Shown here piece after piece: positions 29,254 through 30,306 of a DNA stretch of 64,000 nt. Below the pieces are notes generated by a model. That model was not told the DNA's origin. It did not search any database and was given only the letters and a program-made list of their open reading frames with translations. Both the position numbers and the translations under genes were made by a program. Positions within the stretch are counted from its first letter, which is position 1; every line of letters starts with the position of its first letter. The DNA lies in the NCBI RefSeq assembly GCF_054482525.1, contig NZ_CM137006.1. One strand, given 5' to 3'.

Positions 29254-30306
29254 ATGAAAAAGACAGCTATCGCGATTGCAGTGGCACTGGCTGGTTTCGC
29301 TACCGTAGCGCAGGCCGCTCCGAAAGATAACACCTGGTACACTGGTGCTAAACTGGGCTGGTCCCAGTACCATGACACTGGTTTTATTCCTAACAATGGT
29401 CCGACCCACGAAAACCAACTGGGTGCAGGTGCTTTTGGTGGTTACCAGGTTAACCCGTATGTTGGCTTTGAAATGGGTTACGACTGGTTAGGTCGTATGC
29501 CGTACAAAGGCGACAACATCAACGGCGCATACAAAGCTCAGGGCGTTCAGCTGACCGCTAAACTGGGTTACCCAATCACTGACGATCTGGACATCTACAC
29601 TCGTCTGGGTGGTATGGTATGGCGTGCAGACACCAAGGCTAACGTACCTGGTGGCGCATCTTTTAAAGACCACGACACCGGCGTTTCTCCGGTTTTCGCT
29701 GGCGGTGTTGAGTACGCGATCACTCCTGAAATCGCTACCCGTCTGGAATACCAGTGGACCAACAACATCGGTGACGCACACACCATCGGTACTCGTCCGG
29801 ACAACGGCATGCTGAGCCTGGGTGTTTCCTACCGTTTCGGTCAGGGCGAAGCAGCTCCAGTAGTTGCTCCGGCTCCAGCTCCGGCACCGGAAGTACAGAC
29901 CAAGCACTTCACTCTGAAGTCTGACGTTCTGTTCACCTTCAACAAAGCAACCCTGAAACCGGAAGGTCAGGCTGCTCTGGATCAGCTGTACAGCCAGCTG
30001 AGCAACCTGGATCCGAAAGACGGTTCCGTAGTTGTTCTGGGTTACACCGACCGCATCGGTTCTGACGCTTACAACCAGGGTCTGTCCGAGCGTCGTGCTC
30101 AGTCTGTTGTTGATTACCTGATCTCCAAAGGTATCCCGGCAGACAAAATCTCCGCACGTGGTATGGGCGAATCCAACCCGGTTACTGGCAACACCTGTGA
30201 CAACGTGAAACAGCGTGCTGCACTGATCGACTGCCTGGCTCCGGATCGTCGCGTAGAGATCGAAGTTAAAGGCATCAAAGACGTTGTAACTCAGCCGCAG
30301 GCTTAA
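29254..30306 (+). CDS. ompA: OmpA, outer membrane protein A (variant allele, 350 aa)
   Basis: Track ORF 29182-30306; start at [21 protein letters not shown]; 8-strand beta-barrel, Ala-Pro hinge ([14 protein letters not shown]) and OmpA-C peptidoglycan-binding domain. Loop sequences KGDNINGAY and [20 protein letters not shown] differ from the K-12 allele I recall. Confidence 0.95.

Follow-up and report, generated by a model that had tools for sequence, protein, structure and literature searches.

The ompA gene in the 64,000-nucleotide stretch of DNA analysed here (the window) is almost certainly a chromosomal, common and previously catalogued natural allele, known as 'OmpA-long' or pattern (III, beta), of a phylogroup-D Escherichia coli essentially the same as PCN033. 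Published work already covers the allele class as well as its frequency, structure and mosaic evolution. Comparison with K-12 and with other enterobacteria indicates that the allele is itself a mosaic, assembled from an old loop 2–3 haplotype common to Escherichia albertii, Citrobacter and Leclercia, a loop 1 Pro25 derived in the E. coli lineage, and a derived Thr203 that has probably moved among barrel backgrounds by intragenic recombination.

The ompA gene and its differences from K-12

The forward strand encodes a 350-residue OmpA at 29254–30306, with an ATG at 29254 and a TAA at 30304–30306 in the ORF translation. The product matches the NCBIfam equivalog NF008071 ('porin OmpA') with 674.3 bits against a cutoff of 277, its residues 1–350 aligning with positions 1–358 of the profile, and carries matches to Pfam PF01389 (OmpA_membrane; residues 23–199, E = 1.2e-79) and PF00691 (residues 226–321, E = 8.7e-24). 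The signal peptide cleavage site was placed from knowledge of K-12 OmpA, which we assume to apply here. The protein would be expected to act as an ordinary OmpA, with a Sec signal peptide, an eight-stranded outer-membrane barrel, a Pro-rich hinge and a periplasmic peptidoglycan-binding domain (Table 1). The gene sits between sulA and matP, the same locus as in K-12, and the order sxy–sulA–ompA–matP–ycbZ is kept relative to both K-12 and PCN033.

Table 1 Features of the ompA region and Rfam matches elsewhere in the window
Feature	Position	Strand	Remarks
ompA coding sequence	29254..30306	+	350 codons + TAA; WP_000750418.1, annotated ompA in PCN033
ompA 5' untranslated leader, 133 nt	29121..29253	+	Shine-Dalgarno GAGG at 29243-29246
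Signal peptide, 21 residues	29254..29316	+	identical to K-12
Eight-stranded beta-barrel domain, precursor residues 22-195	29317..29838	+	Pfam PF01389 and PDB 9FZD
Divergent haplotype block, loops 1-3	29385..29694	+	310 bp; 30 substitutions and a 12-nt indel vs K-12
Loop 1 Pro25 codon CCT (K-12 AAC, Asn)	29389..29391	+	core of 5 changes in 7 nt, 29385-29391
Loop 2 Asp66-Asn67-Ile68 (K-12 Ser-Val-Glu)	29512..29520	+	8 of 9 nucleotides different
Long loop 3, 11 residues (K-12 SNVYGKN)	29638..29670	+	12-nt insertion, alignment-placed at 29652-29663
Pro-rich hinge, 22 residues	29839..29904	+	identical to K-12
Periplasmic C-terminal OmpA-like (peptidoglycan-binding) domain	29905..30303	+	Pfam PF00691; matches PDB 2MQE/4ERH
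Thr codon ACC (K-12 AAC, Asn)	29935..29937	+	K-12 mature position 203, position 207 of the window protein
Intrinsic terminator hairpin	30320..30347	+	12-bp stem then T run; terminator scan
cspA-type thermoregulator on cspG leader	6628-7050	-	Rfam gathering-level match
tRNA, annotated tRNA-Ser in PCN033	17594-17678	+	Rfam gathering-level match
PyrD leader	44546-44619	-	Rfam gathering-level match

In DNA alignment, positions 29040–29384, which include the whole 133-nt leader, show zero differences from K-12. The transcript presumably starts at GCCAGGGG, and we take the leader to contain the MicA, Hfq and RNase E regulatory sites, as in K-12 ompA. Given the identity of the leader, expression and sRNA control would be expected to be the same as in K-12. 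A sigma-70 consensus scan of the forward strand upstream of ompA gave no match, a null result that is uninformative because this upstream sequence is that of K-12 from 29040 on, and an Rfam scan of the whole window at gathering thresholds gave no match within or adjoining ompA. Among overlapping reading frames, a GTG-started ORF of 374 amino acids from 29182 was rejected as a mechanical upstream extension, the ATG at 29254 giving the canonical signal peptide and the annotated start; antisense ORFs (29488–29907, 29595–29810 and others) were rejected as mechanical ORFs within a strongly expressed, codon-biased ompA.

Protein and DNA alignments were made against MG1655 ompA (NC_000913.3, 1019013–1020053). 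The K-12 protein, which represents pattern (I, alpha) or 'OmpA-short' (PDB 1BXW/1QJP/9FZC), has the same residue as the window allele at 338 of its 346 positions, and the signal peptide, strands, hinge, 5' UTR and locus are all identical. The amino-acid changes are N25P, S66D, V67N, E68I, S108A, Y111P, an inserted GASF, N114D and N203T, with none besides; the loop-4 motif GDAHTIG is the same as in K-12.

A first-pass annotation, made from the letters alone, had reported KGDNINGAY in loop 2 for the K-12 KGSVENGAY, a loop 3 longer than the K-12 ADTKSNVYGKNHDTGV, and LFTFNKATL for LFNFNKATL. The MG1655 alignment bears out each of these, the second as a net insertion of four residues and the third as N203T. 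The K-12 loop sequences given there are correct against NC_000913.3, and the aligned window protein is not identical to K-12 OmpA. The same annotation had counted two differing loop regions; this holds for loops 2 and 3, but the count overlooked loop 1, where N25P gives FIPNNG for FINNNG. That the variant might be an artefact, whether of sequencing, of assembly or of a wrong K-12 sequence in the comparison, can be dismissed outright: NC_000913.3 matches the K-12 strings given in that annotation, the barrel has been crystallised, and the 1053-nt gene is found identical in 38 independent complete E. coli genomes, so that the variant is neither a chance feature nor a sequencing error.

Published relatives and frequency in E. 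coli

A PDB sequence search found residues 22–195 identical to chain A of 9FZD, all four loops included; the alignment itself covers 21–195, with a mismatch at position 21 (A in the query, S in the chain). 9FZD is OmpA-long with nanobody Nb39, and 9FZC is its K-12-like counterpart, from work in which about 90,000 E. coli genomes were divided into two isoforms, 'OmpA-short' and 'OmpA-long' (PMC12259851, Commun Biol 2025). The isoform-defining feature in that work, a long loop 3 that exceeds SNVYGKN by four residues, is common to 9FZD and the window allele. The crystal construct comprises the transmembrane domain only, leaving Thr203 outside it, and derives from another, clinical strain (CS#11). 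In the window allele the long loop 3 occurs together with loop 1 Pro and loop 2 DNI, a combination for which co-occurrence statistics are given in Table 4 of PMC5413513.

The same polymorphisms were catalogued by Liao et al. 2017, who recorded the pairing of outer-loop pattern III and C-terminal pattern beta, written (III, beta), in isolates 6, 117 and 146 (PMC5413513). The window allele agrees with this pattern (PMC5413513, PMC9560509) at P25, DNI66–68, the long loop 3, the loop-4 His (labelled 149 by Liao, His151 by count on the window protein), I93, Y129 and M161, and carries all of the beta linker and C-terminal residues A175, T203 and G251, with no mismatch at the catalogued positions. 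Pattern II, by contrast, has Asn in loop 4, so that the His of the window marks pattern III. The functional assays of Liao and colleagues were done on (III, gamma), defined by V175 and A251, not on (III, beta) (PMC5413513, PMC9560509). Polymorphism of ompA had been reported earlier, by Gophna and colleagues (2004) and by Power and colleagues (2006). The ompA2 allele of the latter corresponds to Liao pattern II: it shares with the window allele a Pro in loop 1, DNI in loop 2 and the long type of loop 3, but differs from it in carrying Asn rather than His in loop 4 and Asn203 (alpha) rather than Thr203. The loop-3 PCR for ompA2 is reported to have been positive in 43% of 524 isolates; from its sequence, the window allele would be positive in this PCR.

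Counts were made across 5,426 complete E. coli genomes. The 71-nt long loop-3 segment is present in 2,061 of them (38%), and a 321-nt variable block shows an identity of 95% or more in 2,127, of 90–95% in 512 and of 80–90% (K-12-like) in 2,787. An exact 61-mer around the Thr203 codon occurs in 1,741 of 5,425 genomes (32%), a lower bound for the frequency of Thr203. For the gene as a whole, identity reaches 99% or more in 374 complete genomes and 100% in 38. At a frequency of 38% for long loop 3, the allele class is not strain-specific, contrary to what the first-pass annotation had proposed; the long class is one of two major species-wide ompA forms, and the exact nucleotide allele characterises a smaller group of strains than the class does. 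Among the E. coli genomes, five ompA-like matches lie on plasmid-labelled records, and one of these, the 4,668-bp 'plasmid' record NZ_CP097216.1, has an annotated 'outer membrane beta-barrel protein' that is 87% identical to the variable block; the plasmid-labelled matches could be fragments left by assembly or true mobile ompA-like genes.

The surroundings of the gene are those of PCN033, a porcine ExPEC strain (serogroup O11, phylogroup D; PMC4578781). Positions 17000–41999 of the window are 100% identical to this strain, and over all 64,000 bases there are 6 mismatches to NZ_CP006632.1 (about 1082384–1146383, reverse complement), each of a single base, at 8053, 43462, 49340, 53101, 54964 and 63763. 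The gene order, torRTS-yccM-csp-appCBA-hya-...-ompA-...-pyrD-elf/ycb fimbriae-ssu-pepN-pncB-asnS, is that of ordinary core genome, and the Rfam matches to a cspG-leader thermoregulator, a PyrD leader and a tRNA (Table 1) are expected for such a region. Between pepN and ssuB, at about 56314–57662, lies a copy of the IS3-family element IS1397, with a transposase that has a programmed frameshift in the PCN033 annotation. It is flanked by REP-like palindromes at 56044–56062 and 57700–57718 and adjoined by an Rfam match to the REP-derived naRNA4 at 56092–56169 (minus strand), and it looks like a typical insertion into a BIME/REP cluster. The next gene past the right end, ompF, of which the first 18 nt or so fall in the window (about 63983–64000), is marked as a pseudogene ('internal stop') in the PCN033 annotation. 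If it is defective, the strain would combine loss of OmpF with an OmpA surface unlike that of K-12, which would matter for the profiling of phage and colicin receptors.

Age, polarity and exchange of the loop block

The differences from K-12 are concentrated in the 310-bp block that spans loops 1–3, which contains 42 of the 47 difference columns in ompA and 30 of its 35 substitutions (Fisher test for clustering, p = 1e-12). DNA divergence from K-12 is about 10% in the block, against about 0.6–1.6% in the remaining gene and its neighbours. A codon comparison of the window with K-12 gives dS = 0.287 and dN = 0.056 inside the block and a dS of 0.027–0.032 elsewhere in the gene, estimates based on about 70 synonymous sites; the block carries about 16 synonymous differences, a significant excess (Poisson p = 3e-10). 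Judged from these distances, the block is an old haplotype that has followed a separate evolutionary course.

To polarise the changes, outgroups were sought with the long loop-3 peptide pattern, one genome per species, and matches were obtained in E. albertii NBRC 107761, two Citrobacter amalonaticus-like species, C. sedlakii and a Leclercia metagenome-assembled genome (MAG). In all of these, loop 2 DNI and the long loop 3 are identical in protein sequence to the window, whereas loop 1 has Asp or Asn in place of Pro and position 203 has Asn; the Citrobacter and Leclercia proteins differ further in having Asn in loop 4 and additional changes in the hinge and C-terminal domain. Of the 21 block substitutions in loops 2–3, 20 show the nucleotide of the window, and not that of K-12, in all or most outgroups; the outgroups behind this count were themselves selected by the long loop-3 motif, and the search pattern covers 4 of the 21 sites. 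This agreement makes the short loops of K-12 the divergent form: for loops 2–3, the window form is apparently conserved and ancestral, and the K-12 short loops are the outlier among these motif-selected outgroups. The five changes at 29385–29391, which create Pro25, show the reverse, with the outgroups in the K-12-like state, and the Pro25 change is therefore derived in the window lineage. Likewise, Asn at position 203 in all five outgroups implies that Thr203 is derived.

Exchange within the gene was assessed in eight E. coli alleles. Thr203 accompanies long loops in the window, UPEC 26-1 and A25 and short loops in PRO_A-1551 and FDAARGOS_1288; Asn203 accompanies long loops in 2018-10-1CC and short loops in K-12 and NCTC9008. 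The presence of all four combinations indicates intragenic recombination between the block in the barrel and residue 203 in the C-terminal domain, in what is a small sample in which recurrent mutation is formally possible. Such exchange limits the value of the allele as a phylogenetic marker. Its proposed use for typing therefore stands in part: OmpA patterns do correlate with phylogroup (PMC6995065), but the barrel block and residue 203 recombine.

The structure of the window allele agrees with what has been termed 'mosaic evolution' of outer-membrane protein genes, described for the highly variable regions of ompA, ompC, ompF, lamB and fhuA (PMC12175518; Chen et al. 2022). For ompA, a few loop sequence types are reshuffled by local recombination (PMC12175518, Cao et al. 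2025), and the published picture of a conserved gene with discrete types of loop region fits both the block and the four-gamete pattern seen here. In the portions of these papers available to us, the source of the variable-region types is left open and we found no statement that K-12 is the outlier.

Several histories could have produced such a block. Recent, strain-specific adaptive point mutations, fixed by positive selection on a K-12-like sequence, would agree with the placement of the non-synonymous changes exactly in surface loops 1–3 and with the five changes in 7 nt of loop 1, derived in the window lineage. Such an origin is nevertheless scarcely credible for the allele as a whole. With approximately 16 synonymous differences in the block, and a dS of 0.287 against 0.03 elsewhere, a burst of adaptive point mutations in the recent past is ruled out; E. 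albertii, Citrobacter and Leclercia have the loop 2 and loop 3 sequences of the window as well; and 38% of complete E. coli genomes have the long loop 3. Recent mutation is thus refuted for loops 2–3 and could hold at most for the derived but widespread Pro25 and Thr203. An import of the long loop 2–3 block from another enterobacterial species, with the K-12 short form as the native one, would account for the protein identity with loops 2–3 of E. albertii, Citrobacter and Leclercia and for the strong divergence from K-12, but is also unlikely. The dS of the window block is 0.087 to E. albertii and 0.24 to Citrobacter, close to the 0.121 and 0.29 of the 3' part of the gene, as under vertical descent; it is the K-12 block that is equally distant from all, with a dS of 0.25–0.38. 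Moreover, the scan for the long loop-3 pattern, at one genome per species, found no near-identical foreign donor. The synonymous distance of the K-12 SVE/SNVYGKN block to the outgroups and the window is about that between genera.

An ancient polymorphism has, in our judgement, an even chance of being the correct account: the loop 2–3 polymorphism would be far older than other diversity in the species, the long form would be ancestral, and the K-12 short form would represent a balanced haplotype of great age or an import from some other donor, kept at about 50% by phage- or immune-driven frequency-dependent selection. The dS of about 0.29 between the long and K-12 loop 2–3 forms is, roughly, synonymous divergence at the level of genera. 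A search of the E. coli literature on ompA and balancing selection returned nothing relevant. Should an ancient polymorphism prove to be the right account, it would explain where the variable regions come from, a question left open in the mosaic-evolution papers. The polarity itself, with the long type common to other genera and the K-12 short type as the outlier, would be the only mildly new angle.

Recognition of the loop variants

Loops 1, 2 and 3 together form the surface epitope in which the window protein differs from K-12, and this difference would change which phage adhesins, colicins, antibodies or nanobodies can dock on the cell. The nanobodies Nb01 and Nb39 tell OmpA-short from OmpA-long absolutely, contacting all four loops without cross-reaction (PMC12259851). 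Because the window barrel is the crystallised antigen, its OmpA would be expected to be recognised by Nb39 and not by Nb01. Of eight natural OmpA variants expressed in MG1655, only three allow infection by phages with type-2 Gp38 adhesins, which require particular loop 2 and loop 3 types, whereas type-1 Gp38 phages accept all natural variants (PMC12032242). The polymorphic residues 25, 66–68 and 108–114 match positions 25, 70 and 110, the classical phage-receptor sites of OmpA as quoted in PMC12032242. Attachment and surface properties are also altered by ompA alleles (PMC5413513). By analogy, the (III, beta) allele may resist phages and colicins that are specific for the K-12 loops; such effects on the recognition of OmpA by receptor-binding phages, colicins and antibodies are inferred from earlier studies of the identical barrel sequence or of related variants.

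It is very unlikely that the loop differences are neutral polymorphisms hitch-hiking with the phylogroup background. Patterns I and II showed no difference in the attachment of isolates to corn stover (PMC5413513), as neutrality would have it, but nanobodies and type-2 Gp38 phages do discriminate between natural loop variants (PMC12259851, PMC12032242), the title of Power et al. 2006 states reduced phage sensitivity for the long allele, and the variable residues fall at the classical receptor positions. A tenfold excess of dS that is limited to the loop block is, furthermore, hard to obtain under neutrality with free recombination. The functional relevance for phage and antibody recognition that the first-pass annotation had ascribed to the allele is thereby backed by the published nanobody and Gp38 data.

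Beyond correct annotation the significance of the finding is small, the allele being an ordinary and well-documented one. By analogy with the studied variants, it would decide recognition by OmpA-dependent phages (for example, Straboviridae with type-2 Gp38), by colicins and by OmpA-directed antibodies or nanobodies. A K-12-based reagent such as Nb01 would miss the window allele, for which Nb39 would be needed. More broadly, if K-12 OmpA is neither an ancestral nor a majority reference for loops 2–3, this would bear on OmpA-based vaccines, on diagnostics and on the prediction of host range in phage therapy.
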